DNA of 63,509 nt, the filler included, from Folioceros fuciformis (lineage: Eukaryota), in assembly GCA_049999805.1 (NCBI GenBank). It is 9 parts of 9 records of this genome, joined end to end, with 100 filler letters (N's around TTAATTAATTAA, not from the genome) between each part and the next. Parts side by side here need not be neighbours in the genome. Positions count along the whole stretch, not along the records: positions 27,590 to 36,431 come from JBNGIO010002898.1; 8 more parts are not named here. One strand, written 5' to 3'. Below the pieces are notes generated by a model. It was given only the letters and a program-made list of their open reading frames with translations, was not told the DNA's origin and made no database searches. The translations under genes were made by a program, and so were the position numbers. Each line of letters starts with the position of its first letter. Within the stretch, counting starts at the first letter, position 1. This document shows positions 8,638 to 63,509 of this stretch, in pieces.

Positions 8638-8737
8638 NNNNNNNNNNNNNNNNNNNNNNNNNNNNNNNNNNNNNNNNNNNNTTAATTAATTAANNNNNNN
8701 NNNNNNNNNNNNNNNNNNNNNNNNNNNNNNNNNNNNN
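8638..8737. other. Assembly spacer (N44-TTAATTAATTAA-N44); also at 15150, 21241, 27490, 36432, 46871, 53635, 58269; plain N100 at 15882
   Basis: Identical 100-nt structure each time, with a six-frame-stop linker. Confidence 0.98.
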
Positions 8738-15149: not shown

Positions 15150-15417
15150 NNNNNNNNNNNNNNNNNNNNNNNNNNNNNNNNNNNNNNNNNNNNTTAATTA
15201 ATTAANNNNNNNNNNNNNNNNNNNNNNNNNNNNNNNNNNNNNNNNNNNNAGCTCAAATTTAGGGGGTCAGCTAGTTTGTGACGAGGAACCTGAACAACAA
15301 GGGTCTCTCTATTCACAGCAACCATTTGTGAGGTCACAGCAAACACATCCAGGGTTTGCTGGGTCTGTCCTTGGTGTAGGGCAAGGCCAGGGTGACTTGT
15401 CTGAAGGGTCAGACACC

Positions 15418-15881: not shown

Positions 15882-16437
15882 NNNNNNNNNNNNNNNNNNN
15901 NNNNNNNNNNNNNNNNNNNNNNNNNNNNNNNNNNNNNNNNNNNNNNNNNNNNNNNNNNNNNNNNNNNNNNNNNNNNNNNNNCCAACCAGCATGCAAGAAA
16001 GGTCAGCCCTTGCGGATCTAGCCACCCAAATCTCAGCAATTTTGGGAGCCGCCACGTTCCCCTAGTGGGATGGGGAATCAAGGCCAAGGTGCATTTGCAC
16101 ACTGGATTAACCCTCTAACCCAGCAGCCTGCACACAAGGTCAAGGGAGCTCTCACCAAAAAAACCTCTCCCCTCAATAACAGGCCTGGCCTTGTTGATAA
16201 ATTGAATTGCGTGTATTACCACATATACACACAATTGCTAAAAGCAAAGTATATAATTTTTGGAACCTGATGTGTCTTATATACAATATATCAAGAGTCA
16301 CGACTGTTCATTAATCTCTCATAATCCTAACTAGCTAACATAAGCTACGTTTATATGTATGTAACCCTAACGAGGGGTTTTACTTCAAACACGCCCCCTT
16401 AAACGGAGCGCACTGTTAGCGTGGCGAAGTTGCAGCC

Positions 16438-21217: not shown

Positions 21218-21861
21218 AGGTACGGCAGGGAGCGGGAGGGNNNNNNNNNNNNNNNNNNNNNNNNNNNNNNNNNNNNNNNNNNNNTTAATTAATTAANNNN
21301 NNNNNNNNNNNNNNNNNNNNNNNNNNNNNNNNNNNNNNNNGGGAGAAAGGGGGAGGGGGATGGAGGCGGCCGCAACCCCTACCTCTAGCCCTAGCTAGGG
21401 CACGGCCTCCATGACCGTTCAGGCTAGCCAGGCAATCAGCCAGCCTGACGTCAGACCCTGACACTAACATACCCCACATATTCCCGTTCCTATGTTCAGA
21501 CCATTATTTTATTATTTTCCATATTCTATTATTATTATTATTATTATTTAATCATTTAATAATTATATACCTTTAATTAATATTAAACTAATCACCAGAC
21601 CTAGACTCAAACTTTCCCAACCCTATGGCCCGGTACCGCACCTAAACTTTCCCAGGTCTGGGACCAAACCTATACCCACTCTAATAACCAAACCAACTAT
21701 TTCCTGGTTAATTAACCTAATTAGCACAAAGAAAAATAGGAAAAATGACCAGAAAATAAATAAAAATTAGGGAAAATAAGTAGAAAAAGAAAACCAGACC
21801 ATACCACTATTAACACTTTTTCAGCCAAAACAAACCTCTACCCCAAACTTTGGAGGTTCAC

Positions 21862-27489: not shown

Positions 27490-27766
27490 NNNNNNNNNNN
27501 NNNNNNNNNNNNNNNNNNNNNNNNNNNNNNNNNTTAATTAATTAANNNNNNNNNNNNNNNNNNNNNNNNNNNNNNNNNNNNNNNNNNNNCTAACACCACA
27601 TGAGTTTAGCTCATATAGAGCTCGATAACTCAACATTTTGCACACCCACTTGTGTGCCCCCAGAGTCTCTTGCATCCTAGACATTCCTCTTAATGTGGAT
27701 GTTTGAGACTCCGCCACATGGTATCAGAGCCTAATTCTAGATGCTGATCTTTTTGGGCCTGCAACC

Positions 27767-28354
27767 ATGCCTTGTAGGAGGGTAGTTGATTCATCATTGC
27801 CCCGGGAGTTGCAACATCAAACTCGCCAAGGAGTGGAGTGGATTCCACCACCTCAACAAGGTCCATGGAGCCAAGAATATCTTGATGAATATCGGACTCA
27901 ACTCCGTGTATTTTGGCACAAGCAGGCCCAAGAGCGAAGACAACATCGAATTCAGTTATGTGAGCAGGATTTTGAAGGTGATTTCTAAGCAGCAAAAATC
28001 TCACCATCTTGTGTAAAGTAGAACCTTTATTCACGTTCCAACAATTCAAAATTGAAGGAGAAATTGAGCGCCTTAAAGGATATTGACCAAGAGAGATGAG
28101 GAGATTTTTCTAGAGATTTAATTCAAAAATATTTGGAGAGAATTGAAATTATATTTTCTTAATTACTCTCTAGGCATGAGTCTTTTTTGGAGTCAATTTA
28201 TGATATGGAAGAACGTTTGCAGCAAAAAATGAGCAATATGAGTTATGACATTAATCACGGCATTAAGTGCATCACACAATTGTTGCACTCAATGCATGTA
28301 ATTCCGAATGAGATGGAAGATTGCGTAGGGCCTGCAAGCCCTGTTGCAACCTAA
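27767..28354 (+). pseudogene. Extra sense ORF ('ORF0') upstream of gag, disrupted
   Basis: ATG lies 37 nt after the PBS. Pieces EPLFTFQQFKI, SKIF and IEIIFS*LLSRHESFLESIYDMEERLQQK align with 12073-12752. Confidence 0.6.
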
Positions 28355-31300
28355 TTTGAGAAAATTTTATGAGGTGGTTGAGTGGCAGCAGTTAGGGTTC
28401 CTGATTTGCCACAGCTGTTGCGCGCTCTATCCACAAATTCAGGGCTGCCTTTCAATTCTCGTTGCCCTGAACAACAGTTATGTCAGTTATTTTCCCTTTT
28501 AGTTATTCCAAACAATAAATTTTTGAAATAGCCCTAATTAATCAGACGGTTTTCAGTTAGGGTTCATATCTCGTTTTTCCATTTCATCTGAAGTGCTTCT
28601 TACCTGTATGTCTTCTTCCGTAGACTAGCTTGTTGTAGACTCAGTCATGGCTACTCCTACCTCTCCTATTCAACCAGGAGCAGTGTCTCCAACCTTCATA
28701 GGAGATCTGAAAGAAAAAGACCGTTTCAATGGAACGCATTATGATATTTGGAAAGTCAGAATGAAGTCTACTTTAATTGCTCGCGGAGTTTGGAAAGTAG
28801 TGGATGGCACTTACCCTGATCTTGGGACTCCTTTCCATCCAAGTGTTCCTGGCGCTGTTGTTGCTCCAGGCCAGAAGATCAAGTGGGATACAGCAAATAG
28901 CATAGCTGTTGCCCTGATTATTGCTGGCCTTGATTCCGATTTAGTCCTTGAAATCGAATTCTTGGAGTCTTCCAAAGCTATATGGGACCAGTTAGCTTCT
29001 ACCTACCAAGTAGTGAATTTGATGACGATGTGTGCTATTAGAGGAAAATTTATAAACCTGAAGATGAGAGAGGGGGACTCGGTCTCTGCTCACGCGAGCA
29101 AATTCCAGCACTTGCGTGCTCAACTAGCCTCCTTTGGCACTACCTTCATTGAGATCGAAGTGGTGTTACAGTTTCTTCTCAGTCTTCCTCCTAGCTATCA
29201 GACCTTCGTCACCACTCAGAATGTTCCTATCCAGGTTCCTGGTCAACCTGTCCCTGTAGGACAATCCACACCAACACTCAGCGCTGTTATTGGAGCATTA
29301 TACCAGGAAGAACAAGTTCGTCACATGCGCGGACAAGGATAGCATAAAGGCAAGAATGACAAGGTATATTTTGCCTGGAGGGGCAGAGGCCGGGGTCGTG
29401 GAAGAAATCAGTCTCAACGACCATCCAACATTTGCGGCCAGAGCTCCTCATCAAATATACAAAAACGCCAAGGCAACTGCAACTGGTGTGGGCTGCCTGG
29501 TCATTGGGCTCGTAAATGTCGCAAAAAGAAAGCTGGCGAACCTCAACGGGTGGTACCTCGTCCAGCCACTGCGACTTCAACCACCCAACAAAATAAAGAT
29601 AAGCATACAGTGGATTTCTCAACACCAAATTCAGGCAAGCCAGTTGTAAAGATTCTAACTATCTGTCTTAATACTCTAGCGAGTGATGTTGACAGTTGGT
29701 ACCTGGACAGTGGGGCAACGCGCACATCTGTCGGGAAGAGTCTCTTTTCACTTGCCTCACGTTTTCTTGTGCTCTAGACAAAGTCTACCGTGGTGATGAG
29801 AGTAGTGCCACTAGTTTAAGTATCTTAGGATCTGGAACTTGTAAGTTCCTGTTACATGATGACTCTGAGTTAGTGCTTCCAGATGATTTATATGTCCCAA
29901 AGATGGCAAAAAATGTGATGTCCTTGAGTAAACTCATGAAAATGAAGAGTCTAGTACTTATTGTATCAGGAACTGTATGTTGCTTCTCTAGACGTAGTGC
30001 TCCTGAAGTTTGTATTTTTAAGGCCTTCCTGGAGTCAGAATTGTATCGCCTAGACATATCCTGCACACATCGAGAGCACGTTTGTTCAACAACTAAAGGC
30101 AGCCTAACAACTATCTAGATGGCCAGGCTTTGGCATGCACGCCTAGGCCATGCTAACAAGACTAAACTCTTGGCATCATCTAGACAGGATTGTTACAGGG
30201 AGCCGTTACCTTCATGTTTCAAGGAACTCCCCACATGCAAGATTTGCGTTTTAACAAAGCAACGAGAAGCGTCATTTCCTCGCATACCTGCTCACAGAAT
30301 GATAGCAGTCCTGGATTTAGTACATTCAGACATTTCTGGACGACTGCAAGTCCCATCCTTAGGTGGAGTAGAATATTACCTTACCTTCACAGACGATTTC
30401 AATTGATATACCTTGACATATCATATGCAAAGGAAAAGTGATACATTTCCTCTTTTTCAAGAGTGGCTACTTCTTGTTCAAAGGTAGACTGGCCGTCTTC
30501 TCAAGGTTTTTAGATCTGACAATGGTGGCAAATTTGTCAGTAATTTATTCAAACAATTTTTGGAAGACAGAGGCATAATACATCAACTTATTGTTCCCTA
30601 CACACAGCAACAAAATGGCATGGCGGAGAGAAAGAACCAAACCTTAATGGGCATGACCAGATCCATGCTGTTGTGGTATGGACTTTCTTCTCCATACTGG
30701 GCAGAAGATGTGGTCACAGCAACCTATATTTTGAATAGACTTACCACTAAGGCTCTGCCCAATAAGACCCCATCTGAATTCTTCTAGAATCGGAAGCCAA
30801 GTATTTCACATCTTCGTGTTTTTGGCTCCAAAGCCTTTGAATATGTGCCTGCAGAGAAACGGCGAAAGTTAGATGATAGGGCTCTTCCCCTACTCTTTGT
30901 CGGTTACAGTGAAGTAACCAAAGCTTATAAACTAATTAATCCTAAAACTTTGCAGCCCACAATTGCCGGGAGTGTTACTTTTATTGAGATACTAAATCCA
31001 CCAGTTTTGGACAATGGAAGCTCACCTGGACATCCTACTGATCTTCTGTATGCCGAGAACTTTGTTGAATATCCAGTTGATGCAGATGGTGATGATGGTT
31101 CTGTCAATCCAGATGCCCTTCCTCCACTTGCAGATCAACAGCCTCTCCCCGCCAATGCACATCCAGATCATGACCTAGATCCAACTTTAGAAGAACGAGT
31201 CATCCCTGAACAACTTGTAGATGATCCTGAGTTACCTGCCCAGAATCACGACGTAGGTTTAGGAGACTCAAGTGACCAAAGTTCCATAGCTTCTTCTCCT

Positions 31301-33228
31301 GACTCTGAAGAAACATCTGATCTTACTCCTGTTCCCACACAACTAGTTCGTCGTTTAGAACGTATTAGGAACCCCAGATTAGAAACTCCTTTCAAGTCTT
31401 TGGATTTTTGAAAGTTCGTGTGCGTTTGCTTTCCTTTAGTCCAAGCTGTAGTACCATCCATCCCTCCAGAACCTGTCACGCTCACTGAGGCATTCACTGG
31501 TCTTGACAAATCAAAATGGAAGATGGTAGTGGATGACAAATTCAAAAGTCTTATTCAGAATGGTACCTGGCAGCTTGTTCCTTGTCCAGCAGGCCGCAGA
31601 CCCATCACTTGCAAGTGGGTCTTCAAACATAAGCTTAATGCTGCTGGAGAGATAGCCAGGTACAAGGCACGTTTGTGTGCCCGTGGATTTACACAAGTCC
31701 CAGGGTTAGACTTCCAAGAAACCTTTTCTCTAGTTGTCTGTTCCCAATCTATTCACCTCATGTTGGCTCTTGTGGCTGAACGTGACCTAGAGTTAGAGCA
31801 GATGGATGTGAAGACAGCCTTCTTGCATGGTATTCTAGAAGAAGAGCTGTACATGGAACAGCCAGAAGGCTATGAGGATCCTGCACATCTGAATTGGGTC
31901 TATAAGCTCATGAAGTGCATCTATGGACTGAAGCAAAGTGCAGAACGCTGGAATGCCAGGTTAGACACTTGCCTGAAATCTCTTGGCCTTAAGCAGAGTC
32001 CCGCAGATCCCTCGGTGTACATCTATGATGATGGAAAAGCCTATGTCTTGCTGGCTATATATGTTGATGACGCTATTTTTGCTTCCAACGACAAACCACT
32101 ATTAGCAAGAGTTCAAGACATGCTTTGCAAGGAGTTTGAAATGACAGATGTTGGAGAATTAAAATTTTGCCTAGGAATTCAAGTCCTTCAAGTTCAAGAA
32201 CAAGGCATGATCATTATCCATTAGCATAAATACATTTCTGAGATTTACAGCGATTCCATATGGCCACTGCACATCCTGCCGCCACTCCTGCTGCTGTTGG
32301 AACACGACTCAGCAAGAATGACTGCCCGACCTCAGCATTTGACAAGGAAGACATGAAAGATGTACCTTACAGGCATGCCGTTGGCAGCCTACTTTTTGTT
32401 AGCAACTGGACGAGGCCGGATATTACATATGCTGTCAACACCGCTTCTCAGTCCCTGGAATGCCTTGGACACAATCACTGGACAGCAATTAAACGCATTT
32501 TTAGATATCTGAAAGGTACTCCTCACCTTGGTTTGTGCTACAAGCGAACTGGTTTGGTTCCTACCTTACAGGGTTTTGCAGACGCTGACTGGGCCTTGGG
32601 CCTCAGATTCAGATTCCCGTAGGAGCCTCTCTGCCTATGTTTTCTTACTTTCATCTGCTGCTATAAGCTGGTCCTGCAAGAAACAAACAAGCATAGCTCA
32701 GTCTAGTACAGAAGCAAAGTATAAATGCTTGACAGAATCAGCAAAAGAGGTAGAGTGGGAAAAAGTGTTTCTTCAGTCTGTCCATGCTAAACAGTCTAAG
32801 CCAACCCTCCTCTTCTGTGACAATGCATCAGCCCTAGAACTTGTTGAGCGTCCTCGTTTCCATGCTCGAACCAAACACATAGAGATACAGCACCACTATA
32901 TTAGGGATGTAAAATCACGAGGAGTCGTTAGCCCCACCTATGTTAATACAGAAGCCAACATAGCTGATATACTGACAAAAGCTCTTCCTAGACACAAACA
33001 TGAGGCACATGTCAAAGGTCTAGGTCTCATCGATTTTTCTCCCCACCTTACACAGTGATGCAGTAGCCCTGTTCACTTTACAACAGTATTACTGGCTTTA
33101 CAATTCTGCACGTTGTTAGTGAGAGTATGTTCCCTTACATTTGTCCAAGTGGATCAAGCGTCACAGTTATATCCAGTCGTGGGCACGGTCATGAGCAAAG
33201 GAACCAAAATCCTACCTGGCCAAACCCT

Positions 33229-33744
33229 TTACCTCCCTTCCTTCTTCCTCCTGATTGCGGCTTGAGCCTTACGCACGTCATAACCGTCTTTTGAGAGCTC
33301 AGCCAGAACCTCTTCAAACTCCTCAACTGTTAGTTCGCGACCACCTTGTCCTGTGTTAAGCCCAACAGAAATTGTGTTTGCAAGTTGGGTTGCGCTTAGC
33401 TTGATAGCCTCTAGCTGCTTCTCCAGTCTTGCGCACTTGTCATCTAAACCCAAGAGGTCCTGAATCAGCTCCTTGTCCCTGGTTGTTGGCCACTTCTTGT
33501 TGGAACTTGCCGAGGCAACTAAGACAACAGAGATGGAGCTCCCTTCAACATCTGAGTCATTCGCTCCTCCGGCCACCTGAAGTCTAAGCTGAGACGTATG
33601 CCCACAGATTCAATTTCTAACCATATTGAAGACTGGTGGGAGCAACAAAGGTGCTACAGTGATCAAGAAAATGACCAGCCAGAGGAAGCAACTCACCAAG
33701 AAGGTCATGGGAACAATCTCTTTAGACATCGAATCCATCTCCAT
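33229..33744 (-). pseudogene. Antisense TM plus coiled-coil ORF (171 codons, one in-frame TGA at 33610-33612)
   Basis: MEMDSMSKEIVPMTFLVSCFLWLVIFLITVAPLLL...N*ICGHTSQLRLQVAGG continues in frame into the listed 115-aa ORF. Confidence 0.72.
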
Positions 33745-34141
33745 GCGATGCTCGTGAGAGTGCTACGGATTCAACACGTGGAGCCGGTGTTAACTTTCGC
33801 GTGCAGCCTTGAATGAAGCTGTTGAGATTTTTCGTGAGTCTAGAAGCGGCACTTGCCTCAGGGTTTAGGGTTTTTTCACCGTTTCCTATTCAGTTTCGTA
33901 TCTAAGTTTCTAACATAATTAACCCGTTCAAGGTTAAGTGGGTGTGTTAGATAAATAACTTCTTAGGGTTAAATAGATACAATTAAAGCTACTTTTGTTA
34001 GGGCGCATACCCTAAATGTACATATATGAATTTTTGTGTTTATTGAGTTAGTTGAGTATTTTGCACACCCACTTGTGTGCCCTTAGAGTCTCTTGTATCC
34101 TAGACATTCCTCTTAATGTGGATGTTTGAGACTCCGCCACA

Positions 34142-36431
34142 AAAATTACTCATCAAACTTCTTTTGTTGCATATGTGAGATGTAGCCCCAGAATCCAAGT
34201 ACCAAGCATCATGTGTCTTGGGAGGCTTGGATGTGGACAAGCAAGTCGTCATCACAACTGGCGATTTGCCTTGTGTTGTCTTGTCCTTGGAAATCGTGTC
34301 GGCCTCAGCCCCTCTATGAGTCTTCTCGGCCTTCTTAGGTTCTCCATTTTTCTTTTTATGATACGCCCGCTCCCAATGGCCGGGAGAGCCGCACCAATTG
34401 CAGGCTCCAACCTCTTGGTTTGACCTGGCTTGGTGTTTCCAGCCTTAGATGTGCTAGGTGTAGAGAAGTTTCTACCCTTGTGTTGTGAACGAGGTTTAAA
34501 GGTAAAAAGGACTTTATCTGTTTTGGTACGCCCAAAATGGGAATGAGAACCACTACGTGATTGCTCTTCTTGGAACAAGGCTCCTACAACATGGGTGAAG
34601 CTAATCTACACTGTTTGTCCTACAGCTGCGGCTCTGCCTGCATCTCTAAGTGAGGCTCTGTAGCTAGAGACAAAAGGCTGATAGCTTGAAGGAAGACTTG
34701 TAAGGAGTTGGGCTACAACATCTAAGTACGACATAGTATACCTTATGAAATCAGCTGTGATCTAAGGTGCCTAAACTTGCCCACAAAAACAGCTGCCTTT
34801 TCATTGTCACGCATACGAAGAGAGAAAAGCTCACTCCTTACAGCACATAAGGTTAGTATATTTTTCACATCATATGTCTGCGAAAGCTGGTTCCATATAT
34901 CCTCGACTTTAGCCAAATAGGCAACATCTGGAACTAGTACCTCATCAAGACCACTTATTAGGAGGGCTCGAGCCACATTATTGGCGTTGTCCCATCTGTC
35001 CTTATCGAATTGATTTGCGGTAGCTCCAGGTTGTTTGAAGTGTCCGCTCACAACGCCCCATACGTGCCTAGCATCAAGTGCTGCTTGCATGCGCACGCTC
35101 CACATGGGGTATTTGTTTCCATTGAACCTATCCCGCTCCTTGAACTCAACTGTATACGATGGCTGATAAATTAGTGTGTGTGCCTGTATAGGAAAATTAA
35201 AGCCTGCTCCCGATCTTGGCAAGGCAAGTGGAGGAGGCCCGTAAGCAGGTCCTGGCCCAGGCAAGGGATTTCCATATCCAGCTCCAAGGTTCGGCAACGG
35301 GTTGGAGAATCCAGCTCCTGTCATAGGCAAAGGATTCCCGGGACCAGCTCCATAGCTTGGCAGAGGATTGGAAAATCCCGCTCCTGGCGCACTGGAAAAA
35401 CCTGTTCCAGGCATAAAGGAGGGGATAGTGGGAAACGGCGTTGTGGAGAAGATTCCAGATGGAGAAGTAGTTGCCGTAATTGTGGTCGAAGCCGTATTCG
35501 CAGGGTTTGAAGATGTGGCGGCGAGAGTTGATGCTGCAGGCGTGCCTGAGGAGGCCGCTGCTGGCCCACCAAACAGAACCCCAGCCAGGCTGTGGCTAGG
35601 GATGCCACTGGAGCCTGGGGAGCCAGCCATGGAGTCTAGGCAGCGAGGGTATGGCAACCTCCACTCCGAGAAAACGGCAACCTAACTACAGGTTCAGGCG
35701 GCGGGCATGCAAAGGGCAAAGAGCGCTAAGGGTTGAGGGAGCTCATGCGTGGATCTTGCCCTCGATCTGCGAGGCCTTGTGCTTGGCTGTAGGGAGCTGC
35801 TTGTGTAGGGGAGGCCAAGAGAACTGCTGATGTCGTGGGACCCGAGCCACTGAAGGAAAACGCAGTCTTGCCCTTCCCTGGCTAGGCCTGTTAGCGACGA
35901 GGCTAAAGTAGCTTCTCGTTCCAAGCTCTCAATTTCTGTTGCTCCGAGGCATTTTCAAAATGCCGTTGTCTGCATAGTTTATCTAGCGATGCAGCAGAAA
36001 ACTAGGTTGATGATCTAGCATCATTAGGAACAATTTTTCAGAGGGCATGCTAGACTAAATCATGTGATGCAGGCAGTGGATGTTTTTAGAACACACTAGC
36101 CAGCATCCATATTTGGTAGTGGGTGCTGGGCGCCGTGTTTGTAAAACATTTCAGCTTCAACATCATTACCATAAAGTAAATTTTCAGACTAAAAATATAT
36201 ATAAGGAGTATAATATCTAAACAAGAATGCAAGAGCATTTATTACATGCCATACCCCTATCCTGTTGCTCTAAGAACAACGTATTGACAGCGCTGATACC
36301 ATGTTAATATTCTAGAGATGCTAGAAGATGCAGATAAGAGCAAACTTGTCAAAGAAAAAACAAGATAATTATTTTAAGTAATCAAAAGAGTGTCTTATAT
36401 ACATAAGTTGTTTAACTCTAAGTGACCTTTC
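34142..36431 (-). mobile_element. Copia 5' part (LTR 36302-36431, PBS, gag with Pro/Gly-rich N-terminal extension, protease start)
   Basis: PBS TGGTATCAGCGC at 36290-36301. FKERDRFNGNKYPMWSVRM; WYLDSGATSHIC is cut at 34142 by the previous element. Confidence 0.9.
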
Positions 36432-36531
36432 NNNNNNNNNNNNNNNNNNNNNNNNNNNNNNNNNNNNNNNNNNNNTTAATTAATTAANNNNNNNNNNNNN
36501 NNNNNNNNNNNNNNNNNNNNNNNNNNNNNNN

Positions 36532-38820
36532 GTCTTCACATGGAGGGGGAACCCCCTCAGTGTATTAACCATATCAAGTGAGTGACCCTGGGCTCTACCC
36601 ACAAGTATTTGGGACTTCCTTTTCAAGAGGGGGAGGAGAATGGGGAGATTGGGAAGTATGTCTGCCTCAGGTTCATTCGCAAAGCGGCTAGTTTACAATT
36701 GCTGGAGCTCAACTTGGCAGGTAGGCTTGTGGTGATTAACCATATCCTTACAGCCTCTTTATGGTACTTTTTGTTTATGTGGGCGCCTTCTAAGACAGAG
36801 GTGAAGCGCTTACAACAGGTGCTGACCTCTTTCTTGTGGAAACGTTCAGGGGATGGTTTGGCTGGGTGTTCTAAAGTGGCTTGGCAGCATATTATTCAAG
36901 CGCGTGGAATGGGGGGCCTAGGGGTGGTGGACCCAGTTGCCAAGATGAAAGTTTTGCATGCTCAATGGGTTGTCAGGGCAGCGGATCCAACATACTACCC
37001 TTGGAAGAGTATGCTAACACAGTACTTGGACGGCACCCAAGCTGTCCCCAGGGGTAGGAGGTCTATTGACAACATTCTAGCTGACAAACCGCTGCTGGAT
37101 ACTACAGGATGCTCCCCGCTCTTTAAGTCCATCTGGAATAGTTACTTGGAGGTCAAACATTATCTTATCCCGGGCACCTTCTCTCATTTGGATGATGTTC
37201 TGGGTATTCCTTTGCAGGGCTTCTCAAGGTTATGGGTACGGGAGTTCAGGCCAAAGGTTTATCGGTCACAAATTTTTGGGCTGGTTTGTCACAAAGGCGT
37301 TATCCAACTTGGGCATTTATGAAATAGATCAGAGTCCCGTTGGAAGGAGGTGGAAGAGGTCAGAAGGGAGTTTGGCGTAGGGGCCCGGCACGTCAAACTC
37401 ATATTCTCGTGGTTGCACGAGGGGCTAGAGGAAAAGGTACATCATATCCTAAAGCAACAACCTACCATAGGCGAGGAAGGGTGGTTTGCTTACTCCATGG
37501 ATAGTAGGGGAGTCGACTCGGAGGAGGAGGATGAACAGGACGAAGCATTAGAGCTAGACAGGGTGATTTGGCTTGCGAGAGCTGACGGCAAAGAGACGTT
37601 GAAGTCGTTCAAGGTCTTGTCGCCTAACGGCTCTCTGGAAGTGCAAGGTAGGGACGACGGTGAAGGCCGAGGGGGGGAACTGCGGGCTATTATTGTAATC
37701 TGTAGGTCCGTTCGGGCAGGGTGGTGGTACACGTCTGGCAAACGCCCAACTGGGCCACGAACCTATGATAAAGCAAAGGTTCTGTGCTGGTTCCGATTGG
37801 GTGAAAACTAGGCTCTGACCTTCAAACTAGATCTCTACAGGTGGCTTAAGCGCCCGGGGTGCAAGAAAGCTACTTCTCGATCTTTCTTCAACTTCCCAAC
37901 GGCAGACCTCTTCCTTTGGTTGGTGCGAGCGCAGAAAATCAAACAAAGACAACCAATGGCTCCCCGCCTGAGGTTAACTGGACGGCGCCAAAAGGAAGCC
38001 ATCAAGCTCCTATGGCACTCCGCAGGAGTCCCTCCCAAGGTCAGGTTTACAGTTTGGTGTTTCTTTCAAGCATGTTTGTCTAATGCAGATCGTTGGGATG
38101 GGCTTCTTGCTGCAACGGGGGAGGACATGTGTCGATTGTGCACCGATGGTGCCCCAAACAAGAGTCAACACATGTTCTTTCACTACTGTTTTGCCCAAGA
38201 GATCTGGGGCGAGGTGAACAGGTGGCTTCGATTGATTTTTCCTAGAGCTAACCTCAAGATCACGAGTCAATCAGCCTTATTTGGGCTGGACGCAGCCTCG
38301 GGCAAACCTCTCATGAAGACCCAATGGTGGGGCTTACTGTGGTCCTCTTGTCTTTTCTATCTCTGGGTCAATTGGTCCGTGGTGGTTCACGGAGGACGGG
38401 AGTGAGCTTCAGTGAAAGCTCTGTTATGGCGCATATGGGAGCATTTATTGATTGCAGCAGAAGCCTTGGAGCAATCAAGCCGGAAGCAATTTAAGCGGAA
38501 AGACTGGAGGATGGCCGGCTTCCTTTCGCCTGGGAAAGATACGGGTTGGAATCACTCGTGCCCCTAGGGACGGTGAGCCTTTAGGGTCTTTGAGAGACTT
38601 TGAAGGGTGTGTATCAGTGTTTTAGGCAGGCGGCGGGTACCATAGTGTAGGGGAGCACTCTCCGTGCGCCTTGTCTTGAGCTTTGGTCTTAAGGCTAGTC
38701 CTCCCCCCTCTCTTTCGGTGCTCGATATATGTCCATTCGTTAGCAGGGGGTTCCCATTGTATTGTAAGTGGGAGGAGTCTTCCACTCATAATTAGAATTA
38801 TTTGCTTCACGAGAAAAAAA
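36532..38820 (+). mobile_element. L1-type LINE 3' part (ORF2 C-terminus with zf-RVT-like motif, 3' UTR, poly-A)
   Basis: KYLGLP, KVAW, GGLGV, CRLC...HMFFHYCFAQEIW; A-tail ending at 38820. Same family as 1357-6790. Confidence 0.92.
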
Positions 38821-41800
38821 CAAGCCAGGTTTCGAGAACCTTTTTTGGTGACCAAATTGCACAGGGGGAACTACACCACCGTCGAGGTAGCCATGAGGTC
38901 CCTGCGATTACAGGCTAAGCAAGCACACCATAAGCAACATACAGCCCTGCTAAAGAGGACGGCAAGGCAGATTGTGACCATCCTACGTGCAGGTAACTCT
39001 TGGGCTTGGAGGTGCACAATTCAAGTTGCGCTCCACAACCTTTGTGCAGACTGTGTGATGTGGGATGTGTACCCTGCAAGAAGCAATCAAGTAGGAGCAG
39101 GGATGTTTGTCAACATGGAAACAACTCAAAGTTGTCACTCCAATTTCATTACTAAAGGGTTTCTTGAGCTGATGCTAGGGCGGCCAGTGGGTGTGGAAGG
39201 TGGATTGAGAGGAGAGGAAGGTGTGGATGGTGGCTTGAGAGGAGAGGAAGGGGAGGCGGTTCTTCACAACAGGGATGTGGCATCAAGTTTGGTTTTGTGA
39301 GTTGACCACATGCAGGGTTGTGGAGTGCTTCCTCCTTATTAGCAAGGGCCCTTCCTCATTCACCCCAGCAGCCTTCACAGCTATCGCTCTCTTGCCCTCC
39401 CTAATCTCCTGCTTTTTTGTTTCTTCCAGTGTATGTTTTCTCATTAAATGTCTTCCAATCCACCTGCACTCCCACAATTTTTTCCAATGTTATCCCTAGG
39501 GCCATGAGTCTAGGAATCCTCTTCTCACCAAGACTTGGCCGCAACTCATAAACACCAAAAACAAAACCATCAATCTCGCACCACTCCACATCACTTAGTG
39601 CGTCTATCACTTTAAACCCATGCCCCTCCTTGAAAGTTGGAGGCCAAATAGCTTCTCCACCTCCTTGGTGCCCAGCTTGTCTTGAAGGGCATTCAAGAGG
39701 GCTAGGTCCTTGACATGAACCCCTATCCCCCAAATGCTACCATCATCAGCCCTCCATGTCCAAGTGTCCATCAATTTTCCTGCACTTGCCCAAATTCTGT
39801 CCACTAAACCCTACTAGGCATCTGCTCTTCGAGCCTTCCCACGTTGGCTTCTTCTCTGAGCCAACCTTGCAGCGACTGCAACAGACCGTTTAAAATCTCG
39901 CTTGGGAAGGGCCTCTAGTGAGCTCACCTATGTACCATGGTCGTCATTGGATCCACATGAACCTCCAGATCCATCATCTTGGAAATCCTCCAAGTCGCCA
40001 GGCTCCTTGCTCACTTGCCCGGCCTCCTCCCTGGCCCCCTTACTTCTTCCCCTGCATCCAACAGACATAAACATGAGATTGGTGAAAAGCAAGGAGAATT
40101 CCTCTCTTACCTTCCCTAAGCAAGTAGAATTTCAAGTAAAAGAATGGAAGGACGATGCATGTGGCATCCTGTGCTCTGCAGGCTGAAACAGGTGACCCCA
40201 AGTTTGTCTTAAGAATACCTTGCAGGCAAGGCATCTTTGCCTGCAAGGCACGTGCAACAATCCGACACGTTCAGATCCAGGTAACCACTAAGCAACCATG
40301 GTCAATTTTGTGGGTGCATAGGCTGATGTCAGTGCTTTCTTCCACACCACCTGTAGTGCTATGCAATCTGATTTAGCCATGCCAGTAGATATGAAGACTA
40401 ATCTCATGTGCAGTTCACCATGTCATTTTTATGTGTTGCATTTGCCACTTCCAATGGTCATACGCTGATAAGTCACTGGACTAAAAGTGCACCTAGTCAC
40501 AACATCTGGTCTTTTAGCCCCATGTGTGGAAATTGTCACTATGCTTGTGAACTTGGGCTACTGCATGCCATCCATGATGCACTTCAAGTGGTTATGTGAA
40601 TTTTCTTTCCACTAGATGTACCACCTTCATACTCTTGATGAACACTGTGACACCCTCGGTACTAACCACGCACTTAGCCTAACATGAAGGATATGTTGTG
40701 TGCCTTTTCTTCATGTGAAGGATCTGCAGTCTATGAAGGAGCCTCAAATCGAAAGAGCAAGTTGGCAACCATTCTTGGTGACCACCTGATCCGCATTACG
40801 GGAGAGTTGGCAAAAATCAACATACAACTTGACAAGTTGGAAGCTGCGGCAAAGGAGATCAAGCAAGCCTTAACTAGTGAAAGGCAACGACTAGGGGAGG
40901 TGGCATTTGACATTCGGAAATGTTCCGAAGAGATGGAAACCACTCCAAAGAGTCGAGAGGAATCTGAAACCTTTGAGGACATTCAAGGGCACACATCTCT
41001 ACTAAACCATCTATCAGGGCAGGTCCAAGCATTGTACACTCTGGAGAAAAGCTTGTACCAGCGAGTGGAGGAGCTGTCGAAGGAGGGCATAGTAGCTTAG
41101 CATGAGCTCAATCAACATGGTTGCATTGTTCATAGGAAGGAACGGACATTCAACATTCTAAAGAGTCTATCTGTAGTACTAGATGTAGAAGTTGAGGGAA
41201 GGCCTGGGCGCTGCAATTTCCTTCCGGCACCCCTGGAGCAAAGGACAAGACCAAGAATCCCTATGAATGCTTGTCCTATTTCTGCAAGGTATTTTCTACG
41301 TAATTGCTCCCTTCATACAATTTGGTCATTAAATTTTTCCAAGCAGAGGTTTCACAAATTGTCCTTGTTACTTTTGCAAGTGGTTTGCTTGCAATGAGTA
41401 GGTCATGTTGTAATGTGAGTATATGTACCATGAGTTTTGTTTACATGCTCATTTGTAGACCAGCAAAACTTGTATGCTCAAGGATTGCAGCATGGAGGTT
41501 GATACAAGATGGTATGTGCCAAAAGATTGGGACCTACTTGTAGGGACTATCCCCTAGGCATGGTGTAGTGAGTTGTTGAAGGAATGGCAAGCTGAGTACC
41601 AAGAGCTTGTGAAAGACCTCGATGCGTTGCTCACTTGGATAGAGCAGATTCACCGAAGCCACAGACAAGACATATCGCCAGCCACTTCTCCATGTGTGCT
41701 TATTTTTTCTCCTTACAAGTCACCATCTCAAGCTATTTCCTCATCCACTGGAGGCTAATACAATGTCATTTGTACTTTGATGCAGAATGCTATGACAAAT

Positions 41801-46870: not shown

Positions 46871-47479
46871 NNNNNNNNNNNNNNNNNNNNNNNNNNNNNN
46901 NNNNNNNNNNNNNNTTAATTAATTAANNNNNNNNNNNNNNNNNNNNNNNNNNNNNNNNNNNNNNNNNNNNGTAGCACACGGCGTAGAGAGGAAGCTTAGA
47001 AAAATCAGAATAGCCACTTGTGAATGTGGGTGTAAGGCCATAAGAGGCCGTGTCATGTGAACCGGTACGGCGGTTGACTGTTAACGTTACGACTGTGCAC
47101 CTGTTCGTGCACTTATATAATAAATATATATATATGTGTAACTATTTGCTTAACGACCTAAACTATGCATGACGCCGGGATACGGGCTAGTTAGGGCAAC
47201 CTATCTCGCTATTGGTGAGACTATCCATAGGTGACTATTGCCTCCCTTCGGAGGCATTGTGCTAGTAGGATTACAAGTTTAATTCTTCAAACCATCCAAG
47301 GCGCTTGTGAATTTGTAAGCCAAACACCTTACATGTCTTCCTAGCCATCTTCTTGGCTCAAAAACCCGATGTCACCCTAAATGCCACCTTTCTTGTATAG
47401 CACCATCGCGGCTGATCCTGGGAGAACCAGACGCGTGGTGCAGGTGAAGATCCAGACAACTAGTGGCATAAAAACTTAG

Positions 47480-53634: not shown

Positions 53635-53914
53635 NNNNNNNNNNNNNNNNNNNNNNNNNNNNNNNNNNNNNNNNNNNNTTAATTAATTAANNNNNNNNNN
53701 NNNNNNNNNNNNNNNNNNNNNNNNNNNNNNNNNNTGTTGAAGGTGGCCGCTTCCCCTTCGATAGCACTGCGTGAAACAGCCGCTACAGCGGATCCGGTCC
53801 TTTTTCCTTTCTTCTCTCATTCTCAGTTGCAGCCAGAATCGTCATTTTCTGTTGAAGCCCACAAATCTCTCAATTTCTGTTGAAGCCAACAATTCTCTAG
53901 TTCAGGTACGAGCG

Positions 53915-54703
53915 ATGCAGAAATCAGGGGCGCGGCCGAGAGATTCTGAGTTGCAGATGCAGATGCGGGACGACATCAGCCAGAGGTCGCTTCGGTTGTT
54001 CGCCGACGGCCAGCTTGACAGCCAGGTGCAGAAGCTACACATGTTGTGCACCTTAGTCATGGCGTGTTCATTCACCGCGGTCCTGCAGCCTCCGGGGGGC
54101 GTCAGTACGGACACAAGAGACTTTGACAAGTTTAAGCCAGGACAGGCAAATCTGCTGCCGGAGTCGACAGTTTTCTGGATCTTTACCGTCGCGAATAGCT
54201 GTGCCATGTCGTTTTCTTATGTCGCTGTCCTCATCTCCTTTGTGTTCCCGCCCAGCATGATTTCGTGGTGTGGGACAGCGCTCTGCTTTGTTTCTGTCCA
54301 TTGCTTCGTTGCCGCATTTTGTGCGTCGCTGTCGATCGTCTTGGGCCAGGAGAGGACCACTTTCATCATCGGTGCTTTCTTGTTCAATCTCTGCTTGATC
54401 CTCCTCTTCATCTGCGGCAGCGTGTACGGCGGATGCAAGATAATCTGGGACTTGATCCTCCTCTTCATCTGCGGCAGCGTGTACGGCGGATGCAAGAGAA
54501 TCTGGGACTTGATCCTCCTCTTCATCTGCGGCGTGTACAGCGGATGCAAGAGAACCTGGGGGTCTACTTCGCGTACGAGCCCAGACATCGTCGCTTCAGA
54601 TGGAGCTGGCGAGCCTGAAGTTATTTCTGGTGAAGGAGCTGGCGAGTCTGAGAGTTCCCAGTATGTCAAGGTCCAATGCACACAAGTTGATGAAGAGTTA
54701 TAA
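53915..54703 (+). CDS. PGG-domain multi-pass membrane protein (ACD6/ankyrin-PGG-type TM domain), no ankyrin repeats visible
   Basis: LCTLVMACSFTAVLQPPGGV...FWIFTVANSCAMSFS...FVAAF matches the PGG pattern. Uninterrupted ORF. The start (first ATG) is uncertain. Confidence 0.85.
   Translation: MQKSGARPRDSELQMQMRDDISQRSLRLFADGQLDSQVQKLHMLCTLVMACSFTAVLQPPGGVSTDTRDFDKFKPGQANLLPESTVFWIFTVANSCAMSFSYVAVLISFVFPPSMISWCGTALCFVSVHCFVAAFCASLSIVLGQERTTFIIGAFLFNLCLILLFICGSVYGGCKIIWDLILLFICGSVYGGCKRIWDLILLFICGVYSGCKRTWGSTSRTSPDIVASDGAGEPEVISGEGAGESESSQYVKVQCTQVDEEL
54394..54560 (+). repeat. 57-bp in-frame tandem repeat, ~3 copies, inside the PGG gene
   Basis: Units start at 54394, 54451 and 54508 and encode LILLFICGSVYGGCK(I/R)IWD. 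Confidence 0.95.
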
Positions 54704-57893: not shown

Positions 57894-60800
57894 TTTTTCG
57901 CGAAGAAAAAGATTCTGATAATTATTAGAAGATATCATCCTCTTACAATATTAGGGGACCTTGCTTAGGTATTTATAGCATGAGTATCATGATCGAGAGA
58001 AAAAAAACCAACCTCGTGTCTAGACCTCAGGTGAGGACGTAGAAAACGCTCCCCACCACCTTGATAATAGTAGTCTGCTAAGACCATTCAAACTTAAACC
58101 TCAAATTCACCCGAAGACCATGGGAGCTCACCTTCCCCAGGGGCAGGCATGATTCCAGTGTTCATCATTCCCAAGCATTAAGAAACCCGCCATCCTCCAC
58201 TCTCTCCGCTTAAACTGTTTCCGATGGTCTCGTGCACCCCACACACATTACACACCTCGCCTCCGGGGNNNNNNNNNNNNNNNNNNNNNNNNNNNNNNNN
58301 NNNNNNNNNNNNTTAATTAATTAANNNNNNNNNNNNNNNNNNNNNNNNNNNNNNNNNNNNNNNNNNNNCCCGAGCATGCCCACATCTCCTTCTCCATGCT
58401 GAAAACCAGGGATCTTTTACACCCATCTGTCACCGATCCGCCTGCTAGCATCTCGTCTTGCGCCTCAGGCCATGCCCTTTGCACTTCAGCAGAGGTCACC
58501 GCCTGCTCTCCCGCCAAGGCGTCACTATCTACTGCTTCAACGAATTCATTCTGGAGTTTGTTAGTGAGACTGTCAATCGAAGAACCCGCCTCACCCCGCA
58601 AATTTTTTGCCTGGAGAGTTGCGTCGGTGCATGCCAACTAGTCTACCACAGCCTCGAGCCCAGACTGATCACAACCTACAACACTCCCTAACAGGACCCG
58701 CGCTTCCGACCTGGCTTGAGGAACCTGCACAAATCCTCCTTGGGCTCTTCCATAGTGATGTCCACCACATCCCTGCCACACCCCACCCTGATCCCGACCC
58801 TCTACGGGGGTCGTGGACGCCTCGGCTTGCAAGCCTTCCTCAGCAAAAACCACTGCGGCGTCTTGATCTCGCAGAGAGCCCAACTCCGTGCCTACATCAT
58901 CACACTTAGGAAGCGATGAGAGAAGCTCAGTCTCAGAGCTCGCACACTTGCGTTCGCAAAACCTGCCTAGGCTGCTCTACAGCACCAGCCCCAACATCTG
59001 GATGGACCGCCATCGAGCCCCATCCTTCCCCCTTGCACTGCTCTCCCTTCCCGGACAGTGACGTAGGGAAGGTTTGGAGCCGGTGTTCGATCAGCTCCTC
59101 GCCAAATTGGAAGCGACACCGTTCGGGAGCTTCCCAGCTTGACACCCTCCAGAAGTCTCCTGGGAGCCCCGTAGTGATCGCCAGGATTGCAAGGCCTCCT
59201 GCCTGACCACTCCTTTATCACTGATGTGCTCCACCTCCTACATCTACCGAGCAGTAAGTTCATCCTCCTCCATTGATAAGGCAGAACTAGTGCCTGGTCC
59301 CGGCAACGGGTAGCTAGCACGCCATGCTTCTAGAGGCTGGGAGGTGGGAATCCCCGGGGCAGAGTTCCCTGCGCTGCCCCCCACCTCTGACGACGTCCCA
59401 CTGGCTCCTTCCCCAATCCCCTTCCCGTTAAGTGGCACATCGTCCAATGGAGGGCTCACCCCACCTTGCTGGGCCAAGGGAGCAGCCCTACCCCCTGGAC
59501 CTACATACTGATCAGGTTGTCTTTCACCTCCAGACCCTTGCTGACAACTTGGAAAGACTCCGTCGTCCACCGCGTTCCCCAGACGTGGCACTAGTTTGCG
59601 CTTCTCCACCCTAGCCAAGAAACTGTGGAGCTTCCCTGCCTTGAGATTCTGAAAATCCCTCTGCCGCTCCCCATGAGAGGTTGACCTGGTTGTTTGCCTC
59701 TGTCTTTGGCTCCCCAGTGTGTGAGGTAGTCCCAACGCCCCCTGGAAGACTGTCTTACCAGCTGCCTTACTTATCCCACCCTGCAATTTTTCGGAGTCCA
59801 ATCCCTGCAAGGCTTGCTTCCTGCAGGGTAGTAAAAGACGCCTGCTGTGCTGCGGGGTTGTTGAGCTAATGAGCATTTCCCCTTTGATGAACCCCCCCGA
59901 TATAACCCTTGTCTTTTGTTGCTAGACCTTTAAAACCTTTTGTTGGGTGACGCACTACCGACGTCCACACTGTTGGAGTCCTCTTCCATAGGCATCGTAG
60001 CCTCAGCTGTCATATCCTCTGCCCATCTTAGCTCCCAACTGCCGGGGAGTTTAATCGATATCATGGAGAAGCCCAAGAAAACCAAGATGTGCCTTGAAAA
60101 CCACTCTAGAAGCTAGAGTCACCGTACCTTTGCCAAATTTCCCATCCTTGATGTAAGCCAGCAACTGGGGCTCCCCCATCCACTGCGAAACCTTGAAGCC
60201 CCGGATTCGACATTCGTCCTTCAACTCAATCAAGGTATTCACGAATACGATAGAGGAGCTATCCTCCAGTTTGTGACACACCAAACTATGCCATGCCCCT
60301 TGCAGATCATGCTAATAGCTTGCTCATCAAACCCCAAACCCGCCTGCAGCATGCCCTTGACTTTTAGTCTGGGAGTAGACCAGAGCCCAGTCGACCCGCA
60401 GGTCGTTTGTAGGGTTAATAAAGCCCAATGTGCTTAGACTAATGTGTTTAGTCTAAGATTAATGTCTAGTTAAGTATGATTAGTTTAGATTAGCTTAAGC
60501 TAATCTGTAGTAAGCTTCTTGCGCAGCATCCTGTGCACTTTTTGTGAAGCTTCCTAGGGAGCTCTTCTAGAGCGTATAAATACCCCCTTGAGCTCCCTTG
60601 CTATAGAGACTCTATTGTGACAGTGTGACCTCTCTTTCTCCTCCTCCTTGCCTCTCCTCCTTCCCATGTAGCTCCTTCTAGCGATCCTTCATGGTCTGGA
60701 ATGAGCGTGTAGGTAAGGCTTTGAGATCTCCCCCCTTCGGCATCCAGTAAAAGTAAGTGTTACCCATTTTCTTCCTGAGGAGAACACACAACTTAGCCTG

Positions 60801-61880
60801 TGCATTGTGTACGCACCCGCTCCCCGAGAAGAACACTTCCTGAACTCGTTTTGCCCACAACTGCGTTCCCAGGTTAGTTCTCTAGAGCTTTGTAGGGGCA
60901 CCTTTGAAGCCAGGTAGGGGGCTAGAATGTGCCTTCTCCGAAATCTCACCCCGACCTCCTGATCCAGCCCGTAAAGGACAAGCCTGCTTGAAATGATTAT
61001 GCAAGCCACACACTCTGCACCGGATGGGAAGATCCGGGTAATCAAAAAGCTGTGTAAAACTCTTAGACGAATCCTCCGGATCACAAATAACGACACCTTC
61101 AGGCAGATCTTGGAGGCTGTCGGCCCTCACTCCGAAACGGGGTGGTTTGTTGCTGTCAAAGAATCTGGAGTCCACCTTAGGGACCTCCACCACCCTGCCA
61201 ATGGTCCCCAGAATTGTGCAAACCAGTGGGACGAGCGGAACCGGCAAAGCAAGAAGACCCACCCATAGGAAATGCCGCTTGATTTTAGACTGCATGATGG
61301 AATTCCCGGGGGACCAGGCCTCTACCACCATCGATATTGATTCTCGGATAGACAATGTTGTATGTAGAAGAGCCTGAGCCCCAGCGGCCTCATCACACTT
61401 AATCTGGAAAGAACCGTCTGCTTTCAAGAAAACATACGCTAGATGGAGGGCATCCCGTTACCCGAGCCACCCACTCCTCTAGTTCCTCCATGGTAGGAGG
61501 ACTTCCAGACATATGGCGCCCCACAACCGAGCTGGCAGAGAGCTTGTCCTCCTCTCTTTGAAAAAATCTCACCCTAAGTGAGCACATCCGCTAGCGGACC
61601 CAGCCTTAACCCTGTACCCACTTTTGTGGAGTTCGAGACATATGCTTGGGAGGGGCCCGGCTGTACCTAAGCCTACACACACTCCACCTCAGGAGGCCGT
61701 ACCTGCAATTCTTTCTCTGTCTCGGCCTTTGTCCAGCAAGTGTCAGAGGGATTAGCAACCTTCTCCCCCTCATTTTGCCCCGGTGCCTTCTGTTTATTAG
61801 AACACATGCCAACTATTGCCACCCATGAGCCAGCTGTTGAGCCCCCCCGTGGGGGGCTCAGCGCCTCCATTGAGCCACCT
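57894..61880 (-). mobile_element. L1-type LINE pieces: 3' end (57894-58228) and, across a gap, ORF1 region
   Basis: The tail TTTTTCGCGAAGAAAA resembles that at 1357. ORF1 shows a DUF4283-like segment and CRVCGLHNHFKQAC (CX2CX4HX4C). The two parts may not belong to one element. Confidence 0.82.
60408..60691 (+). mobile_element. Isolated copia LTR inside LINE ORF1
   Basis: Highly similar to 48302-48572; both copies end at GATCCTTCA. TSD is not clean. Confidence 0.85.
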
Positions 61881-61883
61881 AGC

Positions 61884-62374
61884 TAGCTCCCTACCGGTGC
61901 CATCAAAAAACTTGTTGGCCACTTCATTTGCGAATTTGTCCCCGTGCTTTCTTCTTTGCAGATGAGATGAGGTCTTCCAGTTCGTTGCACATCTCAAGCG
62001 CCTTGATCTGATGCCACAGCAGCTCCATGTCAGCCTTGTTTGGCCACCATGACTTCCAGTTACAAAGGGAGATGACGGAGTAGGAAGCTGTTCAGGTGGC
62101 GGATTTCTCATATGGTTGATGCTGCTGCTGCCCATCTCCAAGGAGTCAAAGTTGTTCCATGCCATCCTGTAGGAGAGAGTGGTGACGATGGGAGCGCACT
62201 GCCGCGATTGGAAGAAAAGCCCCTATTGATCTGTCGAAGTCCTGCTTCTGCTAAACGCCAAGTCCCCTTTTTGTAGCCTGAATGAGCAGTCAGCCTGTAG
62301 GCTGTGATCGCAATCAACACCATGGCACAGAAGGTTATCGTGACAAGTAATGACGGCAATTGAAGTGTCGTCAC
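61884..62374 (-). pseudogene. Third antisense TM plus coiled-coil ORF, frameshifted; PPT and LTR start at 62455-62560 on the plus strand
   Basis: TM segment LLVTITFCAMVLIAITAY, then MEQL*LL..ASYSVI..WWPNKADMELL..MCNELE..FANEVANKFFDGTGREL in other frames. GGTTAACAGGGAG|TGTTAG at 62467. Confidence 0.68.
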
Positions 62375-62726
62375 GAGGAAACATGGTGATAGCTAGAGTT
62401 CGTGTGAGCTTGTCCTTCTTCTTCGCTCATGAGCTTCGCCTTTAACCATTGCAGGTTAACAGGGAGTGTTAGGGTTAATTAGTGATTAACTATATATTTA
62501 ACCTGCTTAGGTTAAATTATATTCAAGGGTCATACCCTTAGGGTTGCCCATACATATTGACAAACTTTTTTTTTTTTTTTTAACACTTGAGATATACACA
62601 TATATAGTATTGTACACAAAAGTATCAGCCTCCGGGCTCTCTTGCATATTTTATGCTAAATGACTATCTTCTGATAGTTTACATTGCTCATAGCCCCATG
62701 AGTCACAAGAGCAAAGAGGATGAATA

Positions 62727-63050
62727 GGAGAATACTTATGGACTTTGGCGCTTATCTTGCAAGGGAGAATACTTATGGACTTTGGCGCTTGTCTTGCAAG
62801 GGAGAATACTTATGGACTTTGGCGCTTGTCTTGCAAGGGAGAATACTTATGGACTTTGCCGCTTGTCTTGCAAGGGCGAATACTTATGGACTTTGGCGCT
62901 TGTCTTGCAAGGGAGAATACTTATGGACTTTGGCGCTTCTCTTGCAAGGGAGAATACTTATGGACTTTGGCCCTTGTCTTGCAAGGGAGAATACTTATGG
63001 ACTTTGGCGCTTTTCTTGCAACGGAGAATACTTATGGACTTTTGCGCTTG
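62727..63050. repeat. 37-bp minisatellite, ~8.7 copies
   Basis: Unit GGGAGAATACTTATGGACTTTGGCGCTTGTCTTGCAA, head-to-tail, no spacers. Confidence 0.97.
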
Positions 63051-63509
63051 CACAACCCTCCGCCACCCATCTAGGGGGGTTGATGATCACGTGCTCGCAA
63101 TTTGAATCCCTAGTACGATCTATAACAACCACATCAACAACACAAACCTATTTCCCCGTAAAGGAAAAAAAAGGTCAGCTGTCAAGCATGATTGTGTGCT
63201 ATCGCTTAGATGCATGCAAATAGTAATTAGTTAATAATTAAGTGATGCTAATAAATAGCATTAGTGGTCATTAATGACTATTTAGTGAAGGTGATTAGAA
63301 AATATAATATAATATAATATAATATTAGCTAGATAAACATATAACTAGATGTGTGGATATGGTTGCAGCAAGTCTCAAGTAGCAGGCATAAAAGCTTAGC
63401 TCAACTGTGTTCGCTATAGTTGTAAGCTTGTATTCTCTTTGCATTCTGTGGAATAGGCTGAAATTAAGGGAGCATTCTCTTGAGTGCATCCTCTTGGAAG
63501 TGCATTCTC

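Follow-up and report, generated by a model that had tools for sequence, protein, structure and literature searches.

A nested Ty1/copia element on a chained stretch of contigs

The window, by which we mean the whole 63.5-kb stretch of DNA analysed, consists of nine unplaced contigs chained by linkers of the form N44-TTAATTAATTAA-N44. The eight linkers occupy positions 8638-8737, 15150-15249, 21241-21340, 27490-27589, 36432-36531, 46871-46970, 53635-53734 and 58269-58368; an additional plain 100-N gap lies within the window at 15882-15981. The antisense frame discussed here is found on the piece 27590-36431, and the second copy alleged in a preliminary description of this DNA is on a separate piece, 58369-63509. 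As the pieces are unrelated unplaced contigs, 'copies' found in different pieces have no common genomic context. Inverted stretches about 96% identical are common to two of the contigs (36532-38820 and 1358-2866) and contain long open frames, one of them with a zf-RVT domain; they are probably a LINE-type element.

The frame is carried by a decayed Ty1/copia element on the plus strand, itself nested in another copia. The features of the locus are the following.

27590..27718, plus strand: partial 5' LTR, truncated by the contig start; demonstrable LTR only at 27635-27718
27719..27731, plus strand: primer-binding site, directly 3' of the LTR end (...CCACA then TGGTATCAGAGCC)
28629..33058, plus strand: gag-pol, decayed, in the order gag, protease region, integrase, RT, RNase H
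33059..33943, no strand assigned: pol-to-LTR spacer of 885 nt, from the pol stop to the polypurine tract and the start of the 3' LTR, both inferred
33744..33229, minus strand: antisense frame of 171 codons, closed by a TAA and interrupted by a TGA at codon 45 (33612..33610)
33628..33708, minus strand: hydrophobic, transmembrane-like stretch, residues 13-39 of the frame, upstream of the TGA
33370..33468, minus strand: heptad run L-L-L-C-L-L-I-A-L-I, residues 48-80 of the 126-aa part downstream of the TGA
33945..34141, plus strand: 3' LTR, of which the part from 34058 on is demonstrable, with a merely inferred start near 33945
34142..35681, minus strand: older copia, host of the insertion, with Retrotran_gag_2 and DUF4219 in 34746-35681 (minus strand)

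Assignment to Ty1/copia follows from the order of Pfam domains on the plus strand of 28629-33058, namely Retrotran_gag_2 with DUF4219, Pol_BBD, gag_pre-integrs, rve, SH3_retrovirus and RVT_2, and is accompanied by an 84-nt LTR pair and a PBS-like word at 27719. The word TGGTATCAGAGCC we take to be of the initiator-Met tRNA type, typical of copia. The paired LTR segments, 27635-27718 and 34058-34141, are 96.4% identical over 84 nt, and likeness farther upstream is only weak. The inferred start of the 3' LTR is the TG behind a purine-rich run at 33930-33944, which gives an inferred LTR length of about 200 nt. The pol stop lies at 33056-33058. When compared with the window's intact 1295-aa copia polyprotein, gag-pol is recovered as four HSPs in three frames with eight in-frame stops, and the element is dead. 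Both the leader (27732-28628, about 900 nt) and the spacer between pol and the LTR are long, and the DNA of the spacer has no match elsewhere in the window. That the element is nested follows from the older, minus-strand copia, whose Pol_BBD match covers profile positions 1-22 of 81 and breaks off at the insertion point.

Two observations concern the piece as a whole. In sequencing run X1, the summed contig depth over 27590-27884 is about 2965, compared with 35-276 across the remaining stretch, and the first 45 bases of the piece (27590 on) do not align with the 3' LTR; the contig may begin in a high-copy repeat or a chimera there. Run X3 differs from 27590-36431 by 473 C>T and 554 G>A changes against 7-92 for each other type of difference, a pattern that is that of bisulfite-treated DNA from the same sample.

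Anatomy of the antisense frame

The preliminary description reported a 171-codon antisense frame with one TGA, situated between pol and the 3' LTR, and this frame is present as described. It lies between the pol stop at 33058 and the LTR (34058 or earlier), antisense to gag-pol. The statement that the ORF track hides the transmembrane part also holds, since the TGA at codon 45 leaves only 33229..33609 in a stop-to-stop list. The first ATG of the frame is about 200 nt inside the inferred start of the 3' LTR. Candidate ATGs occur at codons 1, 3, 6, 13 and 41, all ahead of the TGA, and none occurs among the 126 open codons downstream of it. Including the terminal codon, the antisense frame has two stops; the five others have 5-12 apiece. 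The plus-strand frames across the region have 5, 7 and 10 stops, which excludes a sense-strand 'shadow' gene. Exact contigs from runs X1 and X2, possibly the assembly's own data, span the frame, TGA included, with zero differences. The internal stop density is about that of gag-pol, which has eight stops and three frame changes over some 1300 aligned codons.

The claimed N-terminal transmembrane helix corresponds to a strongly hydrophobic N-terminus, in which the maximum 19-residue Kyte-Doolittle mean is 2.65 (residues 16-34 of the frame), a value suggestive of a membrane anchor; 21 of the 616 window frames of at least 44 aa have a mean of at least 2.0. For the helical C-terminal domain proposed in the same description, AlphaFold2, run with the single sequence of the 126-aa part, predicts helices at residues 43-85, 95-107 and 112-124, at low confidence (mean pLDDT 56.4, pTM 0.24). 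A coiled-coil-like heptad pattern is likewise present, in agreement with the proposed coiled coil as far as residue pattern goes: ten consecutive a/d positions (L48, L52, L55, C59, L62, L66, I69, A73, L76 and I80) are hydrophobic. A run of ten with the residue set LIVMFAC is reached by 4 of 3000 open nulls from a Markov chain and by 5 of 3000 residue shuffles; the set was picked after the sequence had been seen, and the strict set LIVMF gives a run of four, which is ordinary. Within the window, 3 of 356 frames attain a run of ten. The longest heptad run of the window, 11, belongs to a 140-codon frame at 40678-41097 (plus strand) that has no Pfam match. Prediction of residues 40-126 as a homodimer gave a score of 0.31 against a mark of 0.32, with controls not folded, and counts neither for nor against a dimer.

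Relatives of the spacer in the sequencing runs

Runs X1 and X2 contain a 421-letter contig that aligns to 32990-33411 with 68 other letters and one gap and is thus 84% alike. This contig runs from the end of pol through the beginning of the spacer and covers the final 61 codons of the frame, which makes the spacer part of a small family and not a private insertion. The summed contig depth in X1 is 47-51 over the frame and about 10.7 for the exact contigs, a quantity that is not to be equated with copy number. The depth over the frame resembles that over most of the leader, where five bins in 27885-29064 stand at 51-66. One well-supported difference is listed inside the frame, at 33287, where it would change codon 153 from D to G. 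None of the runs recorded as RNA contains the stretch. Run X4, taken to be RNA by guess only, has nothing on 32015-34374 and is uninformative on expression.

The alleged second copy at 62 kb

The preliminary description called the protein conserved within a copia lineage and presented it as selected, on the strength of an alignment by eye with a locus at 62 kb. The quoted motif strings are present at 62088-61880 (minus strand), split across two frames with in-frame stops. With default settings, a tblastn search of the window with the 33-kb protein finds only the query itself and nothing at 62 kb at E<=10, the unrelated matches having E>=0.45. A sensitive search returns a best HSP at 62 kb of 34 residues at 29% identity (21.9 bits, E 0.65), a score equalled by two unrelated places in the window. 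When the whole window was searched with the antisense frame itself masked, 21.9 bits were reached by 75 of 200 shuffled queries at word size 3 and by 155 of 359 at word size 2. Chaining of colinear HSPs on a single strand, across frames, joins three pieces at 62 kb into an alignment of 45.4 bits, which all but one of 359 shuffles match or beat somewhere in the window. Even for the real query the best chains are not at 62 kb but at 37.6 kb and 53.5 kb.

The surroundings of the match are no more favourable. After matches within the host element's own piece were removed, a comparison with the gag-pol ORFs of the host element gave no match on the 62-kb contig, which has no copia gag or pol. In Pfam only one of its frames, 60885-61457 (minus strand), has matches, to DUF4283 and zf-CCHC_4, both sub-threshold. 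At 62727-63050 the contig also has a tandem repeat (about 74 nt, about 95% identical). The apparent conservation with the 62-kb locus is an artefact of alignment by eye. Because the match does no better than shuffled queries and lies on a contig without copia, the description of the protein as conserved and as belonging to a copia lineage loses its support, and with it falls the basis for calling it selected. A wider distribution in a 'copia lineage' has no support in the window or in the searched collections. The antisense promoter that the preliminary description placed in the 3' LTR, an LTR of which only 84 nt is demonstrable, likewise gains no support from the analysis, and the functions suggested there (membrane targeting, movement or anti-silencing) are speculative.

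Searches for homologues

A phmmer search with the 126-aa part against 1.84 billion representative proteins returned two bacterial proteins at E ~3e-4. Both are long repeat proteins that match through 18 and 6 short stretches, and both were rejected as noise. A word-indexed search among proteins of near length scored none of 48 candidates, and scans with the frame confirmed none of 465 pattern matches in metagenomes and none of 20 in viral contigs. The sole Pfam match of the 126-aa part, to Cep57_CLD, has 19.2 bits where the cut-off is 28, and Transposase_28 (PF04195) is absent from both the 126-aa and the 44-aa parts at E<=0.01. The ESM Atlas has no usable match for the whole 126 aa; for residues 40-126 the best score is 0.76, below the level often reached by shuffled proteins. 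The language-model recognition value of the frame is 2159, where 91 of 100 proteins of known families reach 2300.

The element itself is scarcely better represented. A metagenome scan with its RT confirmed 303 of 386 stretches, 80 of which were retained, with identities of at most 48%; in the viral scan with the RT none of nine matches was confirmed. The 80 distant metagenome copia loci contain no relative of the frame (best E 0.38). For gag, only 2 of 466 candidates pass, one with 79% identity across 39% of the query and the other with 49% identity, and no identity above 54% occurs among the best 120 of 354 matches to the end of pol. Since the gag and pol-end searches find the family itself nearly absent from the collections, the missing homologues are weak evidence.

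These searches also bear on whether the spacer might hold captured or foreign coding sequence, that is, a piece of a fast-evolving host gene or of another mobile element brought in by transduction or recombination in reverse orientation, which would have a coding look without being of service to the element. Gene capture by LTR retrotransposons is documented in the available text of PMC7264820, and coding-like codon usage and period-3 signals (below) would be expected from such a piece. We nevertheless regard capture as improbable: the frame matches no plant or other protein among the 1.84 billion representatives or in Pfam, it has no DNA or protein likeness to other elements in the window, and its course from ATG to stop is that of a complete small ORF and not of a fragment.

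Coding signal compared with chance

The frame was chosen by eye among hundreds of frames, and its length is within chance. When the spacer was shuffled 2000 times by dinucleotides, 262 shuffles (13%) had at least 126 open codons and 116 (5.8%) had at least 177 codons with at most one stop.

The model for codon usage was trained on the intact copia polyprotein of the window. It gives the antisense frame 0.084-0.086, above both of its off-frames and similar to the gag-pol ORFs of the element, of which four score 0.074-0.110 and one -0.121. Shuffling the spacer 3000 times produced 1437 chance ORFs of at least 100 codons, and 8 of them attain the score of the frame. Against open frames generated by a first-order chain with the frame's own strand-specific dinucleotide composition, the score was compared under three copia training sets, and 20, 103 and 32 of 5000 nulls reach it (z 2.0-2.5). 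A period-3 chi-square, which needs no training, is as high in 70 of 5000 nulls. Taken together, the intrinsic signals are moderately protein-like.

The specificity of the codon test is uncertain. Among the frames of at least 100 codons in the window, training ORF excluded, the antisense frame ranks 13th of 115, and the top place goes to 54071-54595 (minus strand; z 4.59), a frame antisense to a PGG-domain frame, so the test can be fooled. Calibration against Pfam adds to the uncertainty, as only 1 of 10 high-scoring unlabelled frames has a match, a weak one to RVT_1. The PGG-domain frame itself (53765-54700, plus strand; E 1.5e-14) is probably a host gene fragment, and the frame on its opposite strand is an acidic repeat, AAADEEEDQVPD-like. 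A second antisense frame of the element, of 139 codons (27693-28109, minus strand), lies in the leader and runs across the PBS into the LTR. Its codon score under copia training has z 2.9, and it has no Pfam match; it is either a chance frame or a hint of antisense coding remnants in both long flanks of gag-pol.

A remnant of a family-private ORF or a chance frame

On one account of these data, the spacer is nothing but the usual 3' untranslated region of the copia RNA, with a polypurine tract and perhaps cis signals, and the hydrophobic run and the heptad pattern are accidents of scanning hundreds of frames. The length statistics agree with this, as do the missing homologues, the lack of an ATG after the stop and the low values for language-model recognition and fold confidence. 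The sole evidence of conservation that had been cited is the chance match at 62 kb, an equal heptad run appears in 3 of the 356 window frames, and the top score of the codon test falls on the strand opposite a real gene. On the other side, codon usage, period-3 and the heptad run agree with one another at roughly the 1% level each and are roughly independent, the five sister frames have 5-12 stops where this one has a single internal stop, and the family's near absence from the collections weakens the argument from missing homologues. We give this account somewhat less than an even chance.

The reading that we tentatively prefer, at a little short of even, is that the frame is what decay has left of an antisense ORF private to the family, of the kind known as aORF-3R. 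In favour of such a remnant are the single internal stop in 171 codons compared with 5-12 stops in the other five frames, the occurrence of the codon-usage, period-3, heptad and transmembrane-like signals in the same frame, and the fact that antisense ORFs at such a position are an established kind. It is disfavoured by a length within chance, by the lack of both a homologue and an ATG after the TGA, by the low recognition value, the poor AlphaFold2 model and the unspecific codon test, and by a heptad set chosen post hoc for a frame picked by eye. The family-private ORF and the chance frame are thus close as readings.

If the frame is such a remnant, the antisense ORF would have belonged to a small Ty1/copia family with short LTRs, and its place would have been the spacer between pol and the LTR, which at 885 nt is unusually long. 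Judged by its residues, the product would have had about 170 aa, with a putative N-terminal membrane anchor, a linker, a candidate zipper of five heptads and a short basic, probably helical tail. In the present copy the ORF would be dead, broken by one TGA, and lesions are likewise abundant in the gag-pol of the element. What is observed directly is the anatomy, the number of lesions and the intrinsic statistics; past translation, coiled-coil formation, a membrane location and any role in the life cycle of the element would be inferences. The fuller proposition, that a small Ty1/copia family encodes its own antisense membrane-anchored protein of about 170 aa with a five-heptad zipper and without a relative in the searched collections, we consider rather doubtful.

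Comparison with known systems

A conserved antisense ORF in plant copia was not found in the literature covered, the main texts of openly accessible papers, and the word 'antisense' does not occur in the available text of the REXdb survey (PMC6317226).

The closest parallels are the aORF-3R of plant Ty3/gypsy elements. According to the accessible parts of three reports (PMC7264820, PMC11963269, PMC4093653), these include gene23 of maize Grande and the ORFs of rice RIRE2, Silene Retand and bean pvRetro13 (ORF2); their function is unknown, and some have matches to the Smc domain, which is of coiled-coil type. The same parts of these sources (PMC7264820, PMC11963269, PMC4093653) give spacers of about 3-6.5 kb and ORFs that are usually longer than 200 aa, are present in most copies and occur across species. 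The Transposase_28 domain is recorded in 97% of Retand clusters in the available portion of PMC11963269. In bean, so far as the accessible text of PMC4093653 goes, the families with an antisense ORF2 are gypsy in 15 of 15 cases, and 63 of 65 copia families have no extra ORF, the other two having sense-strand, env-like ORFs. The present frame resembles the gypsy aORF-3R in its position between pol and the 3' LTR, its antisense orientation and its lack of any retrotransposase or env match. It differs in its copia host, in the 885-nt spacer, in being a broken 171-codon frame, with the TGA at codon 45 where an aORF-3R would be intact, in having no Pfam domain and in having been read from a single copy.

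Env-like ORFs of the kind found in SIRE (Sirevirus) elements are on the sense strand and several hundred residues long, for example 381-793 aa, in the available text of PMC4093653. The likeness to SIRE is that of an extra ORF behind pol in a copia element. Transmembrane and coiled-coil features are predicted for SIRE env-like proteins. The present frame, in contrast, is antisense, would specify 171 aa and belongs to an element whose LTR is short, at an inferred 200 nt or so, and no sense ORF lies behind pol, where the three plus-strand frames have 5, 7 and 10 stops.

A more distant parallel is HBZ of HTLV-1, an antisense accessory gene transcribed from the 3' LTR (cited in the accessible part of PMC7264820). 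What is alike is the antisense position, in a retroelement, of an accessory gene, which here is putative and known from sequence. HBZ is a bZIP nuclear factor; the present frame differs in having no Pfam bZIP domain and in its transmembrane-like N-terminus.

The present case is that of one broken copy. If real, it would be an aORF-3R in copia, a superfamily from which none has been described in the literature covered, the plant cases documented there being in gypsy only. A copia antisense ORF with a membrane anchor and a zipper, if true, would widen the class and add to it a small, tractable protein.
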